A stretch of DNA of 64,000 nt from positions 950 to 64,949 of the forward strand of contig JAQUIT010000007.1 of assembly GCA_028681335.1 (NCBI GenBank). The letters run 5' to 3'. The stretch is from Desulfuromonadaceae bacterium (GTDB lineage: Bacteria; Desulfobacterota; Desulfuromonadia; Geobacterales; Pseudopelobacteraceae). The position numbers and the translations under genes are program-made. Every line of letters begins with the position of its first letter. Position 1 is the stretch's first letter. The notes beneath the pieces are model-generated. The model saw only the letters and a program-made list of their open reading frames with translations. It was not told the origin of the DNA and did not search any database. Below, in pieces: positions 3,373 through 63,568 of the stretch.

Positions 3373-4035
3373 CTATGCGGTTTTACACTGTTTTATAAAT
3401 GTAAGCGTCCGCTCACCCATGCTATGTGGCAGTGAATAACGTTGTATTGAGGCAACAGTGAACCCGCCGGAATGAACAACGGCATCAGCTGCTTCAATTT
3501 CATTTTCAGCCTGGTCGCCCTTCATGGCAATCAGGATACCACCCTCTGCAAGGAGCGGGGCAGCCAGAGACACAAAACGATCCAGCCGTGTAAAAGCTCG
3601 TGACGTAATTATGCTGAATGAATGACTGTGCGTTTTATGCAAATCTTCAATGCGAGTGTGGATCGCTTCAATATTTTGCAGCCCCAACACTCGAATGACA
3701 TGCCGTTGAAAATGTATTTTTTTAGCAACAGCATCAACAGAAATCATAACTGTTTCAGGGTTGATTATTTTCAAAGGTATTATCGGGAGCCCTGCTCCGG
3801 ACCCAATATCGAGCAGACGATCTCCGGAGGCTATATACGGGGCAAGACTGAGTGAATCCACGAAATGCTTGATAGCAATTTCGTTAACTTTTGTAATCGC
3901 CGTCAGGTTTACCTTTTTATTCCACTTTACAAGCTCTGCAGCATATGCTTCGAATAAAGCCAATTGTTGCGTAGAAAGTGACAGCCCCATAGCTACTGTT
4001 TCCCGGGATAGTATGTCGCTGATTATGGAGTTCAT
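3373..4035 (-). CDS. rsmG: 16S rRNA (guanine527-N7)-methyltransferase RsmG (GidB)
   Basis: 220 aa with SAM-binding LLDIGSGAGLPIIPLKI. Position directly downstream of mnmG with a 4-nt overlap. Confidence 0.93.
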   Translation of the reverse strand: MNSIISDILSRETVAMGLSLSTQQLALFEAYAAELVKWNKKVNLTAITKVNEIAIKHFVDSLSLAPYIASGDRLLDIGSGAGLPIIPLKIINPETVMISVDAVAKKIHFQRHVIRVLGLQNIEAIHTRIEDLHKTHSHSFSIITSRAFTRLDRFVSLAAPLLAEGGILIAMKGDQAENEIEAADAVVHSGGFTVASIQRYSLPHSMGERTLTFIKQCKTA

Positions 4036-42069: not shown

Positions 42070-45000
42070 ATGCAACAACACCATAAGTTTAGTGCGGCCG
42101 GTACGGCAGTCTGTACCCTCACGCTTTTATCCGGATTAGCAGCCTCCCCCTGTTACGCCCTGCCGCAAAATGGTGCTGTTGTCGGAGGAACGGCGACCAT
42201 TGCGCAGCCGAACACCACGACCATGAATATCAATCAGACCTCCGCCAACGCCATCATAAATTGGCAGGGGTACAATATCGGTGCCAATGAGGCGGTAAAG
42301 TATATCCAGCCCGGCAGCAGCTCGATTGCCCTGAACAGGGTGACCGGTGTCGACCCCTCGTATATTTACGGCCTCCTCTCCGGCAACGGCCAGGTCTGGG
42401 TGATAAATCCCAACGGCCTGCTGGTCGGTCCCGGGGCAACGGTACAAACCGGCAGCTTCCTCGCCTCAACCATGAATATCACCGATGAAAATTTCCTCTC
42501 CGGTAAACATCTCTTCACCACCACGCCAGGCTCTCAGGCATCAATCGTCAACCAGGGAAATATTACGGCCGCAAACGGCGGCTATGTGGTTCTTGCCGCT
42601 CCCACGGTCAGTAATTCCGGCACGATCGTCGCGAACCTGGGCTCGGTGCATCTGGCATCGGGCGACACCGCGACTCTCACGATTGATAACGGCAGCCTCA
42701 TCAACGTGGCGGTAGACGGTGCGGTTGCTGCACAGGCGCTCGGGGTCTCCAATAGCGGCCGCATAAGCGCCGCTGGCGGCCAGGTGGTAATGACGGCAAA
42801 AGTTGCCGGCGACATCATGAAGAGTATCGTCAATAACGACGGGATTATCGAAGTAAATTCCACTCTTGATGGCAGCGGCTTTATCCTTCTGGACAGTGGC
42901 GACTACGGGATTGCGGCAAACAGCGGCATCCTCGATGCGTCGGGCAAAAACGCGGGAGAGGTTGGCGGTACGGTCAAGGTCCTGGGCGAGAAGGTGGCTC
43001 TATACGCCGGTTCAACCATTGATGTGTCCGGCGATGCCGGCGGCGGCACGGTACTGGCCGGCGGAAACTTCCACGGGGCAGGAGCGGAGCAGAACGCCTC
43101 CATGATCTATGTGGATAAAGACGCTTCCATAAAGGCCGATGCGCTCACTAATGGTAACGGCGGCACGGTGGCGGTCTGGTCGGATGATGCGACCCGTTTT
43201 TACGGCACCATATCCGCAAAAGGGGGGGCTAAGGGGGGCAACGGCGGCTTCGCCGAAGTGTCCGGCAGGCATTCATTGACCTATGCGGGGCTTGTCAACC
43301 TCGGCGCGGCAAAAGGTGCGACCGGGACGCTGCTGCTCGACCCTGACGAAATCACCATCATTCACGGTGCCGGCGACACAAATATTCTGGTAACCGGCAC
43401 AAGTCCCTTTGACGATACAAGTTCCGGCAGTGGTTCTCTTCTTTCCGATGGCACACTTACTACCCAGCTGGGCACTGCAAGCGTTTCGGTTATAACCTCA
43501 ACAGGCAATATAACCTCCAACTCCGGTGTGATTATCGATATTAACAGCAACACGCTGACGCTTGACTCTGCGAAAGACATTACACTGGGTGGTCTCTTCA
43601 GCGACACCGGCGCAGCAGGCACCCTCGCGTTGAAAATAGGTCAAAGCGGCAGCGGCGGGACGCTCACCATTCCCGGTACCACCACGATCGATGCGAATAA
43701 CGTGACCGTTAGCGGCGGAACCGGAAGCGACACGATAAACGTCACTCGTGATGCGGACATGACGCTCACGAATACAGCGCTGACGGTCGGTACCGCCTAT
43801 ACACTCAACCACGCGAGTATTGAGTCTGCCGTCCTGACGGGTGGTGCGGGCGACAATGTCATCGATGCCGGTGGTTGGGGAGGATCCGCTTCGATCTATG
43901 ATACCGGCGGTGCGGATACGCTCACCGGCAATGGTGCGCATACGACCCTCATCGGTTCAAACAGCGGCTCAACGTTTGCAATATCAGGATCGAATGCCGG
44001 TACGCTCAACGGTGTTACAACGTTTTCCGGGATCACAAGTCTGATCGGCGGTTCGAATGCAGACACCTTTACGTTGAACACAGGGAGTTTCAACGGCTCG
44101 ATTGCCGGCGGTGGCGGCACTGACACACTGGCCGCAACCAACGGCACCAACAGCTGGCAGGTGACAGGAGCGAACGCCGGCACGCTGAACACAACGACAA
44201 CCTTTTCGGGGATCACGAACCTGGCCGGCGGTGTGGACGCAGATACGTTCACGTTGGGAGTGCCGACTTTCGGCGGCTCGATTGCCGGTGGCGGCGGCTC
44301 CGACACGGTGGCTGCCGCTAACGGCACCAACAGCTGGCAGGTGACAGGAGCGAACGCCGGCACGCTAAACACAACGACGACCTTTGCGGGGATCACGAAT
44401 CTGTCAGGCGGTTCAGTGGCAGACACCTTCACGTTAGCCACGGATATTACCACTTTCAACGGCTCGATTGACGGCGGTGGCGGCACCGACACTCTCCATG
44501 TGACCAACGGGAGCAACGCCTGGCAGACGACCGGCACCAACAGCGGCACGCTGAACGCAACGACAGCTTTTTCCGGGATTACCAATCTGTCAGGCGGGTC
44601 CGGTGCCGATACAATCACACTGGGGGTTTCGACGTATAACGGCTCGATAACCGGCGGTGGCGGCATCGACACACTTGCCGCCAGTAACGGGGCCAATATG
44701 TGGCAGTCAACCGGTTCGAACAGCGGCACACTGAACACAACCACACTCTTTTCAGGAATTACGAATCTGACCGGCGGTTCCGGTGTTGATACGCTGACGG
44801 GCCGTAATGTCATCAATAGCTGGAATATTACGGGCGCCAAAGCGGTAACAGTTGACAGCATGAACGCAACAGGAATGGATGCACTGGCAGGCGGTTCGGC
44901 CGCCGATACCTTCAGGTTGGCTACCGGTGTTTCAACATTCAACGGTTCCGTTACCGGCGGTGGTGGGAGCGACTTACTTGCCGCTATCAATGGAACCAAC

Positions 45001-54347: not shown

Positions 54348-54362
54348 AAATCCCCCCTGCCC

Positions 54363-54510
54363 CCCTTTCATAAAGGGGGGAACCTTGAAATCACTGCACC
54401 GAATGTACAAGAGAACGTTTTTAAGCATCCCTCTTTTCATAAGTGGGAACCTTGAAATCACCGCACCGAATGTACAAGAGAACATTTTTAAGCATCCCCC
54501 TTTATGAAAG
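54363..54510. repeat. Two tandem 67-bp repeats, each headed by a CCCTTT...AAAGGG mini-palindrome
   Basis: GGAACCTTGAAATCAC(T/C)GCACCGAATGTACAAGAGAAC(G/A)TTTTTAAGCATCCC starts at 54379 and again at 54446. A third mini-palindrome CCCCCTTTATGAAAGAGG follows. Confidence 0.9.
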
Positions 54511-54522
54511 AGGAGAATATAA

Positions 54523-54606
54523 AACCACTCATTTTGCAAACCACTCACTTTGCAAGATGGAATGATTCCAAGCCTCCCCCTTTAAGAAAGGGGGATTGAG
54601 GGGGAT
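54523..54606. repeat. 17-bp direct repeat plus G/C-tract hairpin and shared 18-mer
   Basis: AACCACTCATTTTGCAA / ACCACTCACTTTGCAA (54523-54555). Hairpin CCCCCTTTAAGAAAGGGGG. The 18-mer AAAGGGGGATTGAGGGGG at 54587-54604 recurs at 57302-57319. Confidence 0.85.
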
Positions 54607-57371: not shown

Positions 57372-58421
57372 ATGAAAAAAGCGCTTATCACCGGCATAAC
57401 CGGCCAGGACGGCTCCTATCTGGCGGAACTTCTCCTTGCCAAAGGATACGAAGTTCATGGCATGATCCGCAGATCCTCCTCTTTCAACACCGCTCGTATC
57501 GACCACCTCTACCGCGACCCGCACGAAAAAGATGTGCGCATGTTCCTCCACTACGGCGACCTGAACGATGCCAGCTCCATCAACATTCTGCTGCGCAATA
57601 TCCAGCCTGATGAAATCTACAACCTCGGTGCCCAGAGTCATGTACGGGTCTCCTTTGATGTCCCTGAGTACACCGGTGAAGTAGACGGTCTGGGTGCCGT
57701 GCGTATCCTTGAGGGAATCCGCGAAACCGGCCTGCAGACAAAATTCTACCAGGCATCATCGTCAGAACTGTACGGCAAGGTAGTGGAAACCCCGCAGAAG
57801 GAGACCACCCCCTTCTACCCCCGTTCCCCCTATGCCTGCGCCAAAGCCTACGCCTTCTACATCACCCAGAACTACCGCGAAAGCTACGGCATGCACGCCT
57901 CCAACGGCATACTCTTCAACCACGAATCGCCCCGTCGCGGTGAGACCTTTGTTACCCGTAAAATCACCCGCGCAGCCGCCCGTATCAAGCTCGGTATGCA
58001 GGAGTGTCTCTACCTCGGCAACATCGATGCGAAAAGGGACTGGGGCTTTGCCGGCGATTACGTCGAAGCGATGTGGCGGATGCTGCAGCAGGAGCAGCCG
58101 GACGATTACGTCATCGCCACCGGCGAGACCTACATGGTGCGCACCTTTGCCGAAAAAGTCTTTGCCCGTCTCGGCATGCCGCTGGAATGGCAGGGGAGCG
58201 GTGTTGATGAAGTGGGAACCGACACGGTAACCGGCAGGGCGGTCATTCGCATCGACCCGAAATACTTCCGTCCGGCGGAAGTTGACCTGCTTCTCGGTGA
58301 TCCGGCCAAGGCAAGGAAACAGCTGGGATGGGAGCTGAAGACCAGTTTCGAAGAGCTCGTGAATATGATGACCGATGCCGACTTCACGCTTGCAGAGCGG
58401 GAGAAGCGGGCGGACGGGTGA
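57372..58421 (+). CDS. gmd: GDP-mannose 4,6-dehydratase
   Basis: [40 protein letters not shown]...; YACAKAYA catalytic motif; 349 aa. Confidence 0.96.
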
Positions 58422-58436
58422 CTCATGAACAATAAC

Positions 58437-59195
58437 GTGGCTAAAGAAAAGATTTAATACTGTTTTGGCCACGGATTAACACGGATGTTCACGGATAACG
58501 GCAAACCATAGATGCCTTGGTTTAACCAATAAAAGTTTTACAGGTTCAGATTTCATCCGTGTTCATCAGTGTCCATCCGTGGCTAAAGAAAAGATTTAAG
58601 ACTGTTTTGGCCACCGATTAGCACGAATGTTCACGGATAACGGCAAACCATAGATGCCTTGGTTTAACCCAAAAAAGTTTTACAGGTTCAGATTTCATCC
58701 GTGTTTATCAGTGTCCATCCGTGGCTAAAGAAAAGATTTAAGACTGTTTTAGCCACCGATTAGCACGAATGTTCACGGATAACGGCAAACCATAGATGCC
58801 TTGGTTTAACCCAAAAAAGTTTTACAGGTTCAGATTTCTTCCGTGTTTATCAGTGTCCATCCGTGGCTAAAGAAAAGATTTAAGACTGTTTTAGCCACCG
58901 ATTAGCACGAATGTTCACCGATAACGGCAAACCAAGATGCCTTGGTTTAACCCATAAAAGTTTTGCAGGTTCAGATTTCATTCGTGTTTATCAGTGTCCA
59001 TCCGTGGCTAAAGAAAAGATTTAAGACTGTTTTAGCCACGGATTAGCACGAATGTTCACCGATAACGGCAACAACCAGAATTCATGGTTCCATCCGGAAG
59101 ATTTTTTGTAGGTTTTGATTTCATTTGTGTACATCCGTGGCTGAAAAAAGATTCTAGAATAAATTTCCCACCGACTATACATATAGTCACTGAGG
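58437..59195. repeat. Tandem array of five 141-142-bp units plus one degenerate unit; each unit is itself a long imperfect palindrome
   Basis: GTGGCTAAAG recurs at 58437, 58579, 58721, 58863 and 59004 (periods 142, 142, 142, 141), with a degenerate copy at 59137. Unit: TTTAGCCACCGATTAGCACGAATGTTCACGGATAACGGCAAACC...CAGATTTCATCCGTGTTTATCAGTGTCCATCCGTGGCTAAA plus an 18-bp linker GAAAAGATTTAAGACTGT. Confidence 0.95.
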
Positions 59196-59213
59196 ATGAC
59201 AAAAAGGTCCATT

Positions 59214-59600
59214 ATGCCAGATGATGCCTTTGCGGAACTGCTTTACAAGGACACCAGTTTTCAGATTATTGCTGCTGTCTATGAAGTACACAACGTTCTT
59301 GGCTATGGATTTTTGGAGGCTGTTTACCAAAAAGCGCTTGAAAAAGAACTTCGCTTAAGGGATCTAAAAGCCGAGGTACAGAAAGAGATAACAGTTACGT
59401 ATAAAAATGAAGATATTGGCTCGTACTATGCCGATATAATAGTAAACGATGAAATAATTCTAGAGCTGAAGGCTGTAGAAAATTTGACAAAAGCCCACGA
59501 ATCTCAACTACTGAATTACCTGAAGGGGACCGGACTAAAGCTTGGTTTTTTGATCAATTTTGGGAAAGAGAAAGCCATATATAAACGTATGGTATTGTGA
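59214..59600 (+). CDS. GxxExxY-family protein (PD-(D/E)xK-like fold)
   Basis: Signature GYGFLEAVYQKAL (G-x-x-E-x-x-Y), then ADIIVNDEIILELKAV...LLNYLK. ATG 59214 has a better SD spacing than 59196. AT-rich relative to its neighbours. Confidence 0.85.
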   Translation: MPDDAFAELLYKDTSFQIIAAVYEVHNVLGYGFLEAVYQKALEKELRLRDLKAEVQKEITVTYKNEDIGSYYADIIVNDEIILELKAVENLTKAHESQLLNYLKGTGLKLGFLINFGKEKAIYKRMVL

Positions 59601-59604
59601 TTTT

Positions 59605-59664
59605 TCCGTTTATAGTCGTGTTCGGCGGTTAAACAAAGAATCGAAATACTTTTGGCTGCGGGAT
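59605..59664. repeat. Half-elements of the palindromic family (right arm after GxxExxY, then a left-arm-like start)
   Basis: TCCGTTTATAGTCGTGTTCGGCGGTTAAA (59605-59633) parallels ATCCGTGTTTATCAGTGTCCATCCGTGGCTAAA. TTTTGGCTGCGGGAT (59650-59664) parallels TTTTGGCCACGGAT. Confidence 0.6.
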
Positions 59665-59720
59665 CTAGCGAAGAATTGATTCTTCGTTGATTTGAGCCGA
59701 CGTGATGTGGAGGAGATAGG

Positions 59721-60152
59721 GTGCCAACTCAACCGCTTGATGCAAATGTTGGTGTTTCTGATACGGTTTCAACAACTGTCCAGCAGTTGTCTGATATGCT
59801 TGTCAGCATCAATGGGATTGAGCTGGCGATCCTGATCGGTAGCCGGGCAACCGGCACTGCTGGCCCGGAGAGTGATTGGGATATTGCCATCCAGTGGAAA
59901 CGCGGAATGGATTTTATGCAGCAGCTCGCCGCCACCGAACAGCTTCGTAGAGCCGTTGCAAAAATGCTTGGTATCTCAGAGCAGGAAGTTGACCTGATTG
60001 ACCTCCCGACTGCCCGGCTTGCCATGCGGGCGGTGGTTGCTGAAGATGGAATCGCGCTAAAGGGAGAGGACAGTCTGGCCTGGCACCATTTTCTGCAGCG
60101 GACCTGGCGGGAGCTTGAAGAACAATATTGGGAGAAGACCTATGCGGCTTGA
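59721..60152 (+). CDS. MNT-type nucleotidyltransferase (type VII antitoxin-like)
   Basis: 143 aa. LAILIGSRATGTAGPESDWDIAIQW carries the GSxxxG...DxD nucleotidyltransferase motif. GTG start. Confidence 0.8.
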   Translation: MPTQPLDANVGVSDTVSTTVQQLSDMLVSINGIELAILIGSRATGTAGPESDWDIAIQWKRGMDFMQQLAATEQLRRAVAKMLGISEQEVDLIDLPTARLAMRAVVAEDGIALKGEDSLAWHHFLQRTWRELEEQYWEKTYAA

Positions 60153-60561
60153 TCTCTACCAGGCGGAAACCGCCCTCATTGCCCAGGACCAGACAGCCCT
60201 GCTGGATGAAGCCCGCGCAACAATGCTTGCAGGTGGTGCTCTGTCACGTTTGGAGCAAAACGGTGTCCTGCATGCGATCCAGGTATTGGTAGAAAATGCG
60301 ATCGGCAAGGCTAAGCAGCTGCTTAAGGCCGCAGGAAAGCACGTGCCGTTGTCTGCCTATGACGGTTTTCTCGGCGTGGCAGCGCTTGGTGCGGTGAAAA
60401 GCAGTGACCTGACCGCCTGGAATGCCGCCATCGGACTGCGTAACAGGATCGTTCATGACTACATGAATATTGACATGCTACGGGTACTGGAGTTGGTAAA
60501 AAACGAGCAGTATCGGTTTATTACAGACTTCCTGCTGGCACCAAATGACTTTCTGGAATAG
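60142..60561 (+). CDS. HEPN/DUF86 (HepT-like) toxin
   Basis: The R-x4-H HEPN motif lies in GLRNRIVHDYMNID. ATG 60142 overlaps the MNT stop by 11 nt. Confidence 0.8.
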   Translation: MRLDLYQAETALIAQDQTALLDEARATMLAGGALSRLEQNGVLHAIQVLVENAIGKAKQLLKAAGKHVPLSAYDGFLGVAALGAVKSSDLTAWNAAIGLRNRIVHDYMNIDMLRVLELVKNEQYRFITDFLLAPNDFLE

Positions 60562-60606
60562 GAAATAGATTGGATTAAAACCAGAAACGGCGGTTCCCCT
60601 AGAAGA

Positions 60607-60660
60607 GTTTTTATAGGTTTAGATTCCATCCGTGTTTATCTGTGTCCATCCGTGGCTAAA
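60607..60660. repeat. Right arm of the palindromic element family after the HEPN gene
   Basis: GTTTTTATAGGTTTAGATTCCATCCGTGTTTATCTGTGTCCATCCGTGGCTAAA is nearly identical to the right arm of the 142-bp units. Confidence 0.85.
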
Positions 60661-60705: not shown

Positions 60706-61926
60706 ATGTCCTGTCCTGAAAACAAAAACCTGGATCTACAAACCCCTCCGACTGAACCTGACGAAATAAACCTGCTCGACCTACTTCTTGTCCTGGCAAA
60801 AAACTGGAAGATGATTATTGGCGTGCCCTTTATCGTGGCGGTTATCACTGCCATCTTCAGTTTGTCCATGCCCAATATCTACACCGCCAAGGCAATGATC
60901 CTGCCGGGAGACGATAACAGCAGCGGGTTGATGAGTGCGATGATGGGTCAACTGGGTGGCCTGGCCGGTCTGGCAGGTGGTTTGGGTGGTGCCACCAAAG
61001 CGGACCTTTATGTGACCATGCTCAAAAGTGAATCGCTTAAAGACCCGATCATCGATCAATTTAAGTTGATGCAGCTGTATAAAGCCAAGTTTCGCGCCAA
61101 TGCCTACAAAACACTCGGCAGCAATGCGGCCATCAGCACCGGCAAAAAGGATGGTGTCATCACCATTGCGGTCTCCGACAAAGACCCTAAGCTGGCTGCG
61201 GCCATTGCCAATGCCTATGTGGATGAGTTGGGCAAAATGGCGGCAAAGTTGAGCATGTCCGGTGCCGGCAGGAGCAGGGTCTTCCTCGAAGAGCGTCTTA
61301 CCAAGGCCAAGGTTGATCTGGCGGCGGCGGAGGAAACACTGAAGAGTTTCCAGACGAGGAACAAGGTGGTGGCCGTCACCGATCAGGCCAAGGCGACGCT
61401 GGAAGGGGTGGCGCAGCTGCGTGCCCAGTTGGTTGCCCAGGAAGTGCAGATGGCAACCATGCGGCAGCAGTTCACCGATGAGAGCCAGGAGATCAGATCG
61501 ATCAAGGCTACCATCGCCAGTCTGCGCGGGCAGGTAGCCCGTCTGGAGGGGGGCGGTTCGGCAGGCTCCATGCCCGGCGTCGGCGCCATGCCGCAGTTGG
61601 GGCAGGAATACATGCGTCTGATGCGCGAGTTCAAGATCCAGGAAACGCTGGTGGAGCTGTTGACCAAGCAGTACGAGATGACCAAGCTGAATGAGGCCAA
61701 AGATGTGGTGCCGTTCCAGCTGTTGCAGTCGGCCAGGGTGCCGGAGCTGAAGAGCAAGCCGAAGCGGAGCAGGATTGTTATCATGGCTGCCTTTGCCAGC
61801 GGTTTTCTGATGGTGCTGGTTGCTTTTATGCGTGAGTTTGGTGCGAAGATGAATGACGAGGATCGTACGCGGTGGCAGGAGCTGAAGAGGGTGCTGCCAC
61901 TCCCGCGCCGGTTCAGGCAGGAATAA
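60706..61926 (+). CDS. Polysaccharide co-polymerase / chain-length determinant (Wzz + GNVR type, no kinase domain)
   Basis: 406 aa. N-terminal EINLLDLLLVLAKNWKMIIGVPFIVAVITAIF (Wzz TM1), a long coiled-coil periplasmic region and a C-terminal TM after KPKRSRIVIMAAF. Confidence 0.85.
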   Translation: MSCPENKNLDLQTPPTEPDEINLLDLLLVLAKNWKMIIGVPFIVAVITAIFSLSMPNIYTAKAMILPGDDNSSGLMSAMMGQLGGLAGLAGGLGGATKADLYVTMLKSESLKDPIIDQFKLMQLYKAKFRANAYKTLGSNAAISTGKKDGVITIAVSDKDPKLAAAIANAYVDELGKMAAKLSMSGAGRSRVFLEERLTKAKVDLAAAEETLKSFQTRNKVVAVTDQAKATLEGVAQLRAQLVAQEVQMATMRQQFTDESQEIRSIKATIASLRGQVARLEGGGSAGSMPGVGAMPQLGQEYMRLMREFKIQETLVELLTKQYEMTKLNEAKDVVPFQLLQSARVPELKSKPKRSRIVIMAAFASGFLMVLVAFMREFGAKMNDEDRTRWQELKRVLPLPRRFRQE

Positions 61927-61962: not shown

Positions 61963-62055
61963 TTTAGCTTCAGGATTCCCCAGGATTTCGACGGATTACG
62001 GCAAAGACTTTTTGGTTTTAGAATCCCGGGTAATCGCAGTAATCCCGAGGCTAAC
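61963..62055. repeat. Complete diverged unit of the palindromic family after wzz
   Basis: TTTAGCTTCAGGATTCCCCAGGATTTCGACGGATTACGGCAAAGAC...GAATCCCGGGTAATCGCAGTAATCCCGAGGCTAAC. It has the same architecture, with the arm repeats changed on both arms (CAGGATT / AATCCCG). Confidence 0.75.
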
Positions 62056-62330: not shown

Positions 62331-63467
62331 ATGTTGAAAGTTCTGTCTGTTTTTGGTACCCGCCCTGAAGCAATCAAGATGGCTCCTGTCATCAAAGAGC
62401 TGGAAAAGTATCCCGATCTGTTCAAGAGCATTGTCTGTGTTACCGCTCAGCATCGCCAGATGCTCGATCAGGTGCTCAGTCTTTTCAATATCGTCCCCGA
62501 CTATGACCTGAATATCATGAAGCCGGGACAGGATCTTACCGATATAACCTGCAACGTCATACAGGGACTGAAACCTGTTCTCGAAAAAGAGCGCCCCGAT
62601 ATCGTTTTGGTACATGGTGATACTTCTACAACCATGGCTGCTTCGATAGCAGCTTATTACGCGAGAGTAAGGGTTGGGCATGTTGAAGCAGGGCTCCGGA
62701 CTGGCGATAAATTTGCTCCGTTTCCCGAGGAGATGAATAGGCGGGTTACGGGTTCTTTGACGGATCTTCATTTCGCACCGACTGGAGCCGCGCGGCAGAA
62801 TCTCCTCAGAGAAGGTGTTACAGACAGCACTATTTATGTCACAGGTAATACGGTAGTTGATGCACTTCTTTTAGTTTCAGAGATGCTCACCAAGAATCCT
62901 GAGCTTGACCGCAAATTTACTAATGAGTTCTCTTTTCTGGATCCAAGTAAAAAACTCATTCTTGTCACCGGCCATCGTAGAGAGAATTTTGGATCAGGTT
63001 TTGAAAATATCTGCTTCGCCCTTGTCGACATCGCCAGCAGGAACCCGGACGTGGAGATACTCTATCCAGTTCATCTGAATCCAAATGTTCAGGAACCGGT
63101 GCAACGGATTCTAGGTGCCGGGAATATAAGTAACGTGCATCTTATCGAACCGGTTGACTATCTACCATTTGTATATCTGATGAACCGATCATATCTGATC
63201 ATCACTGATTCCGGTGGGGTACAGGAGGAGGCACCGTCTCTCGGCAAACCGGTGCTGGTCATGCGCGACACGACTGAGAGGCCGGAGGCAGTCGAAGCGG
63301 GTACCGTCAAGCTGGTGGGAACGGATAAGGCAAAAATCGTTACTGAAACGCTGGCGCTCCTGTATGATCAAGCAGCCTATGATCATATGGCTAAGGCTCA
63401 TAACCCGTATGGGGATGGACAGGCCGCGTCACGGATCTGTCAGGTGCTTGGTAAAACCATTTTGTAA
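62331..63467 (+). CDS. wecB: UDP-N-acetylglucosamine 2-epimerase (non-hydrolysing)
   Basis: [28 protein letters not shown] and [20 protein letters not shown]. Confidence 0.95.
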
Positions 63468-63568
63468 CCGCCGATAGGCGTAGAGAAACCAAGATAAGGG
63501 GTTAATTTCTACCCAAAAACAGTTTTTGAACTTTTCGGCGTGCATCCGCTTTTATCGGCGGTTACAAA
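63461..63568. repeat. Complete diverged unit of the palindromic family spanning the wecB stop
   Basis: TTTGTAACCGCCGATA (63461-63476, containing the wecB TAA) and TATCGGCGGTTACAAA (63553-63568) are 16/16 complementary across a 76-bp loop. The right arm CTTTTCGGCGTGCATCCGCTTTTATCGGCGGTTACAAA parallels the array's right arm. Confidence 0.8.

Follow-up and report, generated by a model that had tools for sequence, protein, structure and literature searches.

What is a run of nearly identical, gene-less repeats doing in the middle of a surface-glycan operon? The question is raised by a 64,000-nt stretch of DNA from a Desulfuromonadaceae bacterium (assembly GCA_028681335.1, contig JAQUIT010000007.1, positions 950 to 64,949 of the forward strand; hereafter the window), in which an array of 142-bp units separates gmd from a small gene of the GxxExxY family. 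A previous sequence-only reading had counted five and a half tandem copies of an internally palindromic unit and had offered three explanations: a protein-binding iteron field, a tandem structured-RNA array, or a series of empty insertion sites. Judging from sequence, we tentatively read the array as five non-autonomous copies, in tandem and without genes, of a selfish cassette family resembling repetitive extragenic palindromes (REPs) and miniature inverted-repeat transposable elements (MITEs), probably served by the GxxExxY nuclease. We place this account slightly short of an even chance.

The tandem periodicity was confirmed. Tandem Repeats Finder returned a period of 142 with 4.5 copies and 96% matches at 58436-59071 (score 1153), and repeat finding gave start-to-start spacings of 142, 142 and 141 nt, followed by 133 nt to a short last copy at 59120-59149. 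The left arm quoted previously occurs five times with up to three mismatches, against no occurrence in 100 shuffles. Each unit consists, in this order, of a linker, a left arm, a centre or cargo, and a right arm. An arm is made of three CAC-N-GAT heptads at a spacing of 10 bp (one helical turn), and the two arms of a unit are inverted; in the array units the inverted arms measure 33 nt and are 73-82% complementary. The two-heptad pattern CACGGATNNNCACGRAT, with at most one mismatch allowed, has 18 matches against 0.08 expected, 16 of them within the array and two at 60628-60654. The AAACCA/TGGTTT mini-hairpin of the array units and the pairing of GTGGCTAAA with TTTAGCCAC over the 18-nt linker, both pointed out before, are present when the sequence is read directly. 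No open reading frame (ORF) of at least 40 aa is fully contained in 58473-59020, in line with the previous description. A CRISPR array had been rejected and remains so: there are no unique spacers between the arms, and the entire 142-bp period repeats at 96% identity.

When the right-arm/linker/left-arm junctions were aligned (n = 8), the system was found to extend past the array to 60660. What had been taken for a degenerate copy at 59137 is where the following unit, one with a gene, is joined on, and the repeat system therefore continues to 60660. Its whole layout is gmd, five empty units, a GxxExxY unit, a unit with a MntA/HepT pair, and wzz; the two flanking genes had been named correctly, as the family matches in the following list show.

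57372..58421, + strand: gmd (GDP-mannose 4,6-dehydratase; TIGR01472, E 5e-175; PF16363), 5′ of the array.
58436..58468, + strand: left edge of the array, CGTGGCTAAAG plus linker, the remainder of the right arm being absent; its 10 nt CGTGGCTAAA recur at 60651-60660.
58437..58578, + strand: empty unit 1; left arm 58469-58496, right arm 58555-58582.
58579..58720, + strand: empty unit 2; left arm 58611-58638, right arm 58697-58724.
58721..58862, + strand: empty unit 3; left arm 58753-58780, right arm 58839-58866.
58863..59003, + strand: empty unit 4; left arm 58895-58922, right arm 58980-59007.
59004..59145, + strand: empty unit 5, of another centre subtype (like units of the related locus L262 and the centre 5′ of 60628); right arm 59113-59140, one heptad short.
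59146..59640, + strand: gene-carrying unit 6, from the junction alignment; decayed left arm ~59168-59197, decayed right arm ~59604-59634.
59214-59600, + strand: GxxExxY gene in unit 6 (128 aa, alternative start 59196; TIGR04256, E 3e-41; PF13366).
59641..60660, + strand: gene-carrying unit 7, from the arm scan and nhmmer; decayed left arm ~59654-59687, centre remnant 60579-60627, intact right arm 60628-60655 followed by CTAAA.
59721-60152 and 60142-60561, + strand: mntA and hepT in unit 7 (NF047752 and NF047751).
60706..61926, + strand: wzz-like chain-length determinant (PF02706, PF13807), 3′ of the system.

The outer edges of the system are identical over 10 nt, with CGTGGCTAAAG at the start and CCGTGGCTAAA at the end, at 60660. 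The closing half-unit was also recovered with a unit profile, which matched 60579-60660 at model positions 41-123 (nhmmer, E 1.4e-13). Between these edges the arms around the genes have decayed: a degraded linker and left arm occupy ~59146-59197, 5′ of the GxxExxY gene, and the 100-nt interval between GxxExxY and mntA (59601-59700) is a degraded right arm, linker and left arm. The left arm of unit 6 is well preserved at this position in a relative. MntA/HepT, a type VII toxin-antitoxin pair, thus lies inside an arm-bounded unit. On the other side, the 5′ leader of wzz can be aligned with the relative L212 starting directly after CTAAATAGT. Units 1-4 have one common type of centre, while unit 5 and the MntA/HepT unit have another, as in the L262 units; thus the array is not one simple recent duplication. 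The idea of empty insertion sites came close: the units are empty copies of a cassette that carries genes at other loci and also 3′ of the array.

GxxExxY (PF13366) genes are characteristically accompanied by inverted arms of phased heptads. In loci selected for their arms, all six GxxExxY genes adjoin arms, and five are bracketed on both sides. We also used an arm-blind sample, the 80 closest of 587 metagenome relatives by GxxExxY protein similarity (46-83% identity), 69 of them with full flanks, from a family of ~35,000 clusters. The best inverted repeat between the 160-nt flanks scored at least 13 in 46 and at least 17 in 34 of these 69 genes, against a maximum of 16 and a median of 8 in a same-composition mirror control. 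A generic phased-array finder (at least three copies of a 7-mer, at most one mismatch, spacing 9-11 nt) detected 4.05 arrays per kb within 150 nt of GxxExxY genes; the rest of these loci gave 0.32 per kb and shuffled sequence 0.04 per kb. Such an array is found on at least one side of 53 of the 69 genes and on both sides of 30. The heptad type differs between elements (CACGGAT, CACAGAT, CACAGAC, CGCAAAT, CGCGGAT, CACGAAA, CGCAGAC and others), and a single type is common to all 6-8 heptads, in both arms, of one element.

The arrangement of two inverted arms (at least three phased heptads each, 9-11 nt apart) that bracket a loop or a small gene holds for the units of the window and for 60 pairs elsewhere. 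No known transposase was seen among the genes between arms; the sole recurrent gene there is GxxExxY (PF13366). ORFs that appear to start inside the left arm (MDTDEHG...) were judged weak, because two of the three frames of the arm are open and include an ATG and the tblastn queries contained those residues. We found no paper that connects these arms with GxxExxY, and an exact-sequence literature search with the arm gave no occurrence; GxxExxY, PDDEXK_3, PF13366 and TIGR04256 are mentioned merely in passing in the literature that was found.

The arms are spread far beyond this lineage; neither this spread nor the tie to the GxxExxY family had been noticed in the sequence-only reading. A genome scan for CCGTGNNNATCNGTGNNCATCCGTGG (20 specified bases, one genome per species, 596 Gb), for which about one match is expected by chance, returned at least 120 loci. 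The scan is specific to this one pattern, and relatives were compared throughout as assembled contigs. Matches carry the labels of Verrucomicrobiota, Planctomycetota, Acidobacteriota, Nitrospirota, Proteobacteria, Bacteroidota, Leptospiraceae, Bifidobacterium and others; these labels come from the titles of metagenome-assembled genomes (MAGs), and since MAG and metagenome contigs dominate, both they and tandem copy numbers may be wrong. In the loci listed by the scan, at least 120 in number, there are 201 arms with up to four mismatches. Of the adjacent arms, 60 pairs are in left-then-right order, enclosing loops of 1-562 nt, and 21 are arranged otherwise; therefore the lone palindrome is the common form. 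It is laid out as (T)TTAR-CCACGGATGnACACGGATnnACACGGAT, a loop and an inverted copy, and the inverted arms span 28-33 nt. Lone palindromes lie between convergent (7), divergent (6) and tandem (9) genes, by crude ORF calls, with no bias towards 3′-ends.

Cultured organisms provide further cases. In Gemmatirosa kalamazoonensis a GxxExxY gene is followed by a CGCGGAT palindrome, of which there are 6 and 11 copies (17 in all) on two megaplasmids, against two GxxExxY matches, both on one of them. In Treponema saccharophilum the GxxExxY gene is bracketed by arms. A BLAST comparison of two array units with plasmids gave no match. The CCGTGNNNATCNGTGNNCATCCGTGG pattern also occurs in 46 viral-contig stretches, as lone copies between phage genes. 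In the viral contig L219, heptad-arm copies stand at ~1990-2040 and 3900-3960 among phage structural genes, one directly 3′ of the major capsid gene. Arm pairs 2-4 kb apart in viral contigs were considered as ends of insertion sequences and rejected, being separate lone copies between phage structural genes.

Comparison of the glycan locus with its relatives, whose gmd-containing contigs are labelled Desulfuromonadales or Geobacteraceae, revealed units that are present in one genome and absent from another. In L212 the spacer between gmd and wzz is just 198 nt long and looks like one decayed unit, and MntA/HepT cassettes are found 3′ of wzz; in L213 there are 68 nt after gmd and then a different downstream gene. 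L210, with a gmd 95% identical to that of the window, has about five tandem units (121-136 bp, heptads CACGGAC/GTCCGTG) at 990-2470. This 1.5-kb block also contains a reverse-strand PemK/MazE pair and a closing centre and right arm; on one side it borders on a small membrane-protein ORF that follows DAO, on the other on the RadC stop. There is no unit at the DAO/RadC junction of the window, and the two genes overlap in L212 and L213. Between wecB and ugd, L262 has 4.7 units and a second GxxExxY gene, compared to one decayed unit in the window. A further relative, ~92% identical, has 18 nt in place of the GxxExxY-mntA junction (~100 nt, 59603-59702), so that GxxExxY and MntA/HepT share one arm pair.

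L122 and L204 have in common only a 534-nt GxxExxY cassette (91% identical); their flanks are unrelated, and the breakpoints fall in right-arm modules. After GxxExxY, L204-L207 have at least ten same-strand toxin-antitoxin cassettes, each ending in TTTAGATTT and a right arm. Such small same-strand cassettes vary between relatives (L204-L207, L212 and the window versus L208). A 111-bp tandem array with CATGAT-type heptads directly follows another GxxExxY gene (57% identical) at 293-539 of L204 and 1-539 of L205; it has 2.2 copies in the former and at least 4.9 in the latter, in contigs from two samples that are otherwise 99.9% identical, a difference that may be due to assembly collapse. The 156-bp array of L209 (2.9 copies) has the heptad CGGATAA, and the GxxExxY gene 5 kb away is flanked by this heptad as well. 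Taken as they stand, the cassettes seem to move and multiply within sugar-coat gene clusters.

Several details of these loci deserve mention. In the capsule locus of L204 (5900-12387; also in L205-L207) the cassettes are HicAB, MazE, PIN, DUF4160/DUF2442, HicA, BrnT, ParE and ORF6N. After the terminal TTTAGATTT there are 2-7 right-arm heptads, and several cassettes begin with a second module, GACGGGAAATCGGCATTATGTCCCCGGATTATTC. Empty-unit tandem arrays tend to about five copies (5.5 in the window, 4.7 in L262, ~5 in L210, at least 4.9 in L205, 2.9 in L209) and usually abut a gene-carrying unit. At 9186-9218 of L212 a ~30-nt copy of the gmd 3′-end (CGCCGAACGCGAAAAACG...GGGTGA) stands inside the cassette array 3′ of wzz, beside a ATTATGTCCCCGGAATATTC module; it is the footprint of an old rearrangement. 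The same cassette hotspot (5990-6700 of L262, 60-130 of L122) contains a gene for a Y1 transposase (PF01797, 214 aa) resembling REP-associated tyrosine transposases (RAYTs). It is flanked by its own REP-like repeat, GGTGCCTGTCCCCCTTAG (17-nt unit, 2.9 copies), unrelated to the heptad arms. As no other RAYT-like gene was found and this one goes with repeats of another kind, a RAYT was rejected as the mobiliser of the arms.

No excess of direct repeats that would mark a target-site duplication was found at offsets 0-7 and lengths 2-5 in 59 elements compared with 200 shuffles, and the 2-4 nt that adjoin the arms on the outside repeat in inverted and not in direct orientation. Joints described as 'skips 1506' and 'goes back 1506' in runs X3 and X4 were considered as signs of excision or circles. 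They were rejected because flank and segment depths are equal and the joints lie on a repeat common to both ends.

The protein encoded by the recurrent gene appears to be a nuclease. Its AlphaFold model (pLDDT 92) has Cas4 SSO0001 as the best PDB match in Foldseek (E 1e-4, TM 0.55) and lambda exonuclease as the next, with RNA-splicing endonucleases and Hjc-type resolvases lower in the list. In 51 homologues E35, D74, E84-x-K86 and Q98 are invariant and Y102 nearly so, and the window copy has them all; we take these residues to be the RecB/Cas4 motif set. On the model and this conservation, GxxExxY is predicted to be a minimal RecB/Cas4-type PD-(D/E)XK enzyme with an intact E, D, ExK, QxxxY site. 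The family comprises 35,014 clusters (50% identity) at E ≤ 1e-3. Many of its best matches are 250-290 aa long with two GxxExxY domains, which suggests that the enzyme probably acts as a dimer. These two-domain proteins may be tandem fusions or read-through of adjacent cassettes. GxxExxY genes are rare on plasmids (8 records), no PADLOC or PHROGs entry was found for the family, and it has no sequence relative in the PDB. A survey of PD-(D/E)XK enzymes lists PDDEXK_3 as a family of unknown function with multiple horizontal transfers (PMC3424549).

Do the arms act as protein sites on DNA or as stems in RNA? The strongest rival to a mobile cassette places them in RNA: they would be long stems in a polycistronic glycan mRNA, acting, in the manner of hairpins of REPs and bacterial interspersed mosaic elements (BIMEs), as stabilisers, as RNase III/E processing sites or as attenuators that set the gmd:wzz expression ratio, or they would excise selfish cassettes from the transcript. 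Folded as RNA, the whole array does far better than shuffles (z -10.3). No promoter or terminator signal was found in the array region, so the array is probably co-transcribed. In metatranscriptome contigs of the ~92% identical relative, linker, left arm, GxxExxY, mntA, hepT and right arm form one run, at a depth like that of gmd, although DNA carry-over in the libraries could contribute to it. The phage palindrome directly 3′ of the major capsid gene would also suit a role in mRNA. Finally, the window has two more palindromes downstream:

61973..62051, + strand: lone palindrome between wzz and wecB, built like the array units but with another heptad, GGATTNC, three times and inverted three times.
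63466..63563, + strand: decayed lone unit between wecB and ugd; its 11-nt ends, AACCGCCGATA and TATCGGCGGTT, are perfectly complementary.

Therefore nearly every intergenic spacer of the glycan operon has such an element, as might be expected of mRNA stems. (In the first of the two the heptads read GGATTCC, GGATTTC and GGATTAC and then recur inverted, and the centre, AAGACTTTTTGGTTTTAGAAT, resembles the centres of units with other heptads.)

Other observations speak against RNA. A stem needs no identical heptads at a 10-nt phase, the arms in the window are just ~70-80% complementary, and the fold of a single unit, computed as DNA, is like that of its shuffles (z -0.89). The variable heptad base (CAC-R-GAT) shows no covariation between arms: in 60 elements the match between the arms of one element was 0.85, 0.53 and 0.72 at the three heptads, compared to 0.83, 0.46 and 0.75 between elements. 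Past 4 nt outside the arms there is no within-element pairing, just a common A-rich/T-rich composition. Lone palindromes show no preference for convergent over divergent gene pairs. Rfam gave no match in the window at gathering score, and at E ≤ 10 only chance-level matches to eukaryotic microRNA and small nucleolar RNA models in 58300-59300 (up to 19.7 bits). The proposed structured-RNA array is thus not supported, and an RNA-level element in general seems unlikely to us. Recognition by a protein on duplex DNA is favoured over a stem because the heptads are identical and spaced by one helical turn, because all of them change in concert between lineages, and because their variable base is under no pairing constraint. 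To judge from these sequence patterns, the heptads fit protein sites on DNA better than an RNA stem. Of the three original explanations, the iteron field agrees with the anatomy: the heptads are identical and 10-bp phased, and their type changes between lineages but is uniform within an element.

Returning to the mobile cassette, we propose that the heptads are putative binding sites on double-stranded DNA for a protein, most likely the GxxExxY nuclease itself. Its binding would synapse the arms, and it would cut or recombine at or near their outer ends without target duplication. Cassettes could in this way be inserted, exchanged, lost or amplified in tandem, with gene-less units as non-autonomous copies served in trans; any effect on the mRNA of the glycan operon would be a by-product.

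A number of observations weigh against this scheme. Only ~5% of arm pairs in arm-selected loci enclose a GxxExxY gene, and a recognisable remnant of one was detected in just one of 38 loops (L063), a count on which we rejected the idea that the loops are GxxExxY deletion remnants. The L210 array has no GxxExxY gene within 13 kb, the arms of the window's own GxxExxY gene are decayed, and three heptad types occur in one operon, yet the 64-kb window has a single GxxExxY gene. The enzyme lacks a separate DNA-binding domain. Differences in tandem copy number could reflect assembly collapse. In addition, the 1-4 nt outside CCACGG covary between arms (0.88 versus 0.55 at the first), as does spacer column 10 (0.57 versus 0.33); therefore some pairing or subfamily effect exists. 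A broader proposal is one we hold with considerable doubt: that GxxExxY and its arms make up an unrecognised cross-phylum class of minimal (~0.5 kb) mobile cassette. Its sole enzyme would be a ~125-aa RecB/Cas4-type PD-(D/E)XK nuclease that makes no target duplication. Such cassettes would have given rise to thousands of gene-less palindromes, as RAYTs spawn REPs, and, in some lineages, to integron-like toxin-antitoxin and empty arrays in surface-glycan operons, whose recombination they might drive.

The heptads could instead be sites for a host chromosomal protein (a global regulator, integration host factor (IHF) or HU, or a response regulator), with the array as a regulatory or nucleoid-organising field. 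Direct repeats at 10-bp phasing fit winged-helix regulators, and the organism of the window is a relative of the Desulfuromonadales. For Geobacter metallireducens, Aklujkar et al. (2009, PMC2700814) listed opposite-strand pairs of sites, each of 3-5 short tandem repeats, under the name 'predicted global regulator binding sites' (classes 1-3), and these repeat blocks are interpreted there as IHF/HU or global-regulator sites. This catalogue is the closest prior description of elements comparable to ours. Its sites are likewise multicopy and intergenic, with a variable distance between sites, in a related lineage. They differ in consisting of contiguous 7-9 nt repeats (GTTGCTYN, TCTCCGTS[Y], MTYCTGA) instead of heptads at a 10-nt period, a comparison made by consensus; and the available part of the catalogue draws no link to GxxExxY, cassettes or tandem arrays. 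A lineage-specific regulator would leave unexplained the near-identical 28-nt arm in many phyla and in viral contigs. The strong link to GxxExxY genes, the presence/absence and cassette behaviour between relatives, and the several heptad types in one operon also argue against host-protein sites, which we consider distinctly unlikely.

Less likely still is an integron-like array, in which the repeat modules would be attC-like sites for a recombinase encoded elsewhere and the empty units geneless cassettes. The same-strand toxin-antitoxin cassettes of L204-L207 and L212, each ending in a right-arm module, are what it would predict, as are the identical 10-nt core at both outer edges of the window system and the breakpoints of cassette exchange in repeat modules. 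On the other hand, no attC boxes (R″/L″...L′/R′, with RYYYAAC/GTTRRRY cores) were found at the unit boundaries, which read CCGTGGCTAAAG...TTTTAGCCAC, and there are three heptads per arm instead of R and L boxes. In the 10 kb to each side none of the called genes is an intI, the remainder of the genome not having been searched, and across phyla lone palindromes and single bracketed genes predominate over arrays. A type III toxin-antitoxin-like system, with repeat RNA processed into units that neutralise the adjacent GxxExxY protein as ToxI does ToxN, can be set aside as very improbable: about five repeats do lie directly 5′ of GxxExxY in the window (5.5) and L262 (4.7) and directly 3′ in L205 (4.9), and RNA endonucleases are in the Foldseek list, but most GxxExxY genes have single arms and no array, the L210 array adjoins PemK/MazE and no GxxExxY gene, no terminator stands between array and gene, and the best structural matches are DNA nucleases.

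Set beside known systems, the proposed cassettes appear to have their closest functional analogue in REPs and BIMEs with their RAYTs, and their closest architectural analogues in MITEs and in integrons or clusters of attC sites lacking integron-integrases (CALINs). Membership in each of these groups fails on a defining feature. Like REP/BIME elements with RAYTs (Y1 HUH enzymes; Enterobacteria, Pseudomonas), they are dispersed short intergenic repeats in inverted pairs inside operons, at times form tandem clusters with alternating orientations and two kinds of linker (as in BIME-2), and greatly outnumber the single small gene they flank. However, a REP is itself a hairpin, whereas an arm here is three direct heptads and is not self-complementary; the flanked gene encodes a PD-(D/E)XK nuclease, not a Y1 transposase, the Y1_Tnp gene of L262 being flanked by the other repeat; and the arm sequence is cross-phylum, while REPs are species-specific.

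A MITE was named in the sequence-only reading as an identity that would count against its view of the array. Inverted ends and many dispersed copies were indeed found; target-site duplication and a known transposase were not. The elements resemble MITEs further in their size (90-150 bp), in being gene-less relatives of a gene-carrying form, and in their rows of subterminal binding-site repeats, as in Mu, Tn7 and IR/DR elements. In contrast to MITEs, they have no DDE transposase, their cargo can be toxin-antitoxin pairs, and a deletion derivative was detectable only in the L063 loop. With integrons and CALINs they share small, often toxin-antitoxin, same-strand cassettes, conserved imperfectly palindromic modules between them, and a content that differs between close relatives; attC cores are missing, and the elements usually occur as lone palindromes or with their arms around a single gene. 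ToxIN (type III) also has ~5.5 tandem repeats beside a small nuclease gene, but its repeats are 36 nt long while the units here are 111-156 nt and palindromic, and arrays are exceptional for GxxExxY genes and also occur without such a gene. Nor is the unit a simple terminator, as had been recognised: the array contains no terminator-like site, that is, no G+C-rich stem followed by a T run, and lone palindromes are as frequent between divergent genes.

The arms give PF13366/TIGR04256 a reproducible DNA signature and hence a first testable hypothesis, heptad binding and end cleavage. The arm family would also explain a class of dispersed palindromes at which metagenome assemblies break and which had been taken, by an earlier guess, for regulator sites. 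Should the nuclease indeed mobilise the arms, the two would represent a second system of the REP/RAYT kind, with another enzyme at its base, and an autonomous element of very small size. Such an element could also drive the turnover of cassettes in the phage-receptor loci for O antigen and capsule. In annotation, the array is better described as repeat or mobile DNA than as an RNA gene or CRISPR.

Two other repeats occur in the window. At 54360-54600, 5′ of a PhoU-like gene, there is a different repeat with a 67-nt unit (2.1 copies, 89%) and a 16-nt unit (2.1 copies), together with several mini-hairpins of C and G runs (CCCCCCTTTCATAAAGGGGGG). At 44017-44778 there is a G+C-rich tandem repeat with a 180-nt (or 366-nt) unit (4.2 copies, 73% identity), which probably codes for a repeat domain.

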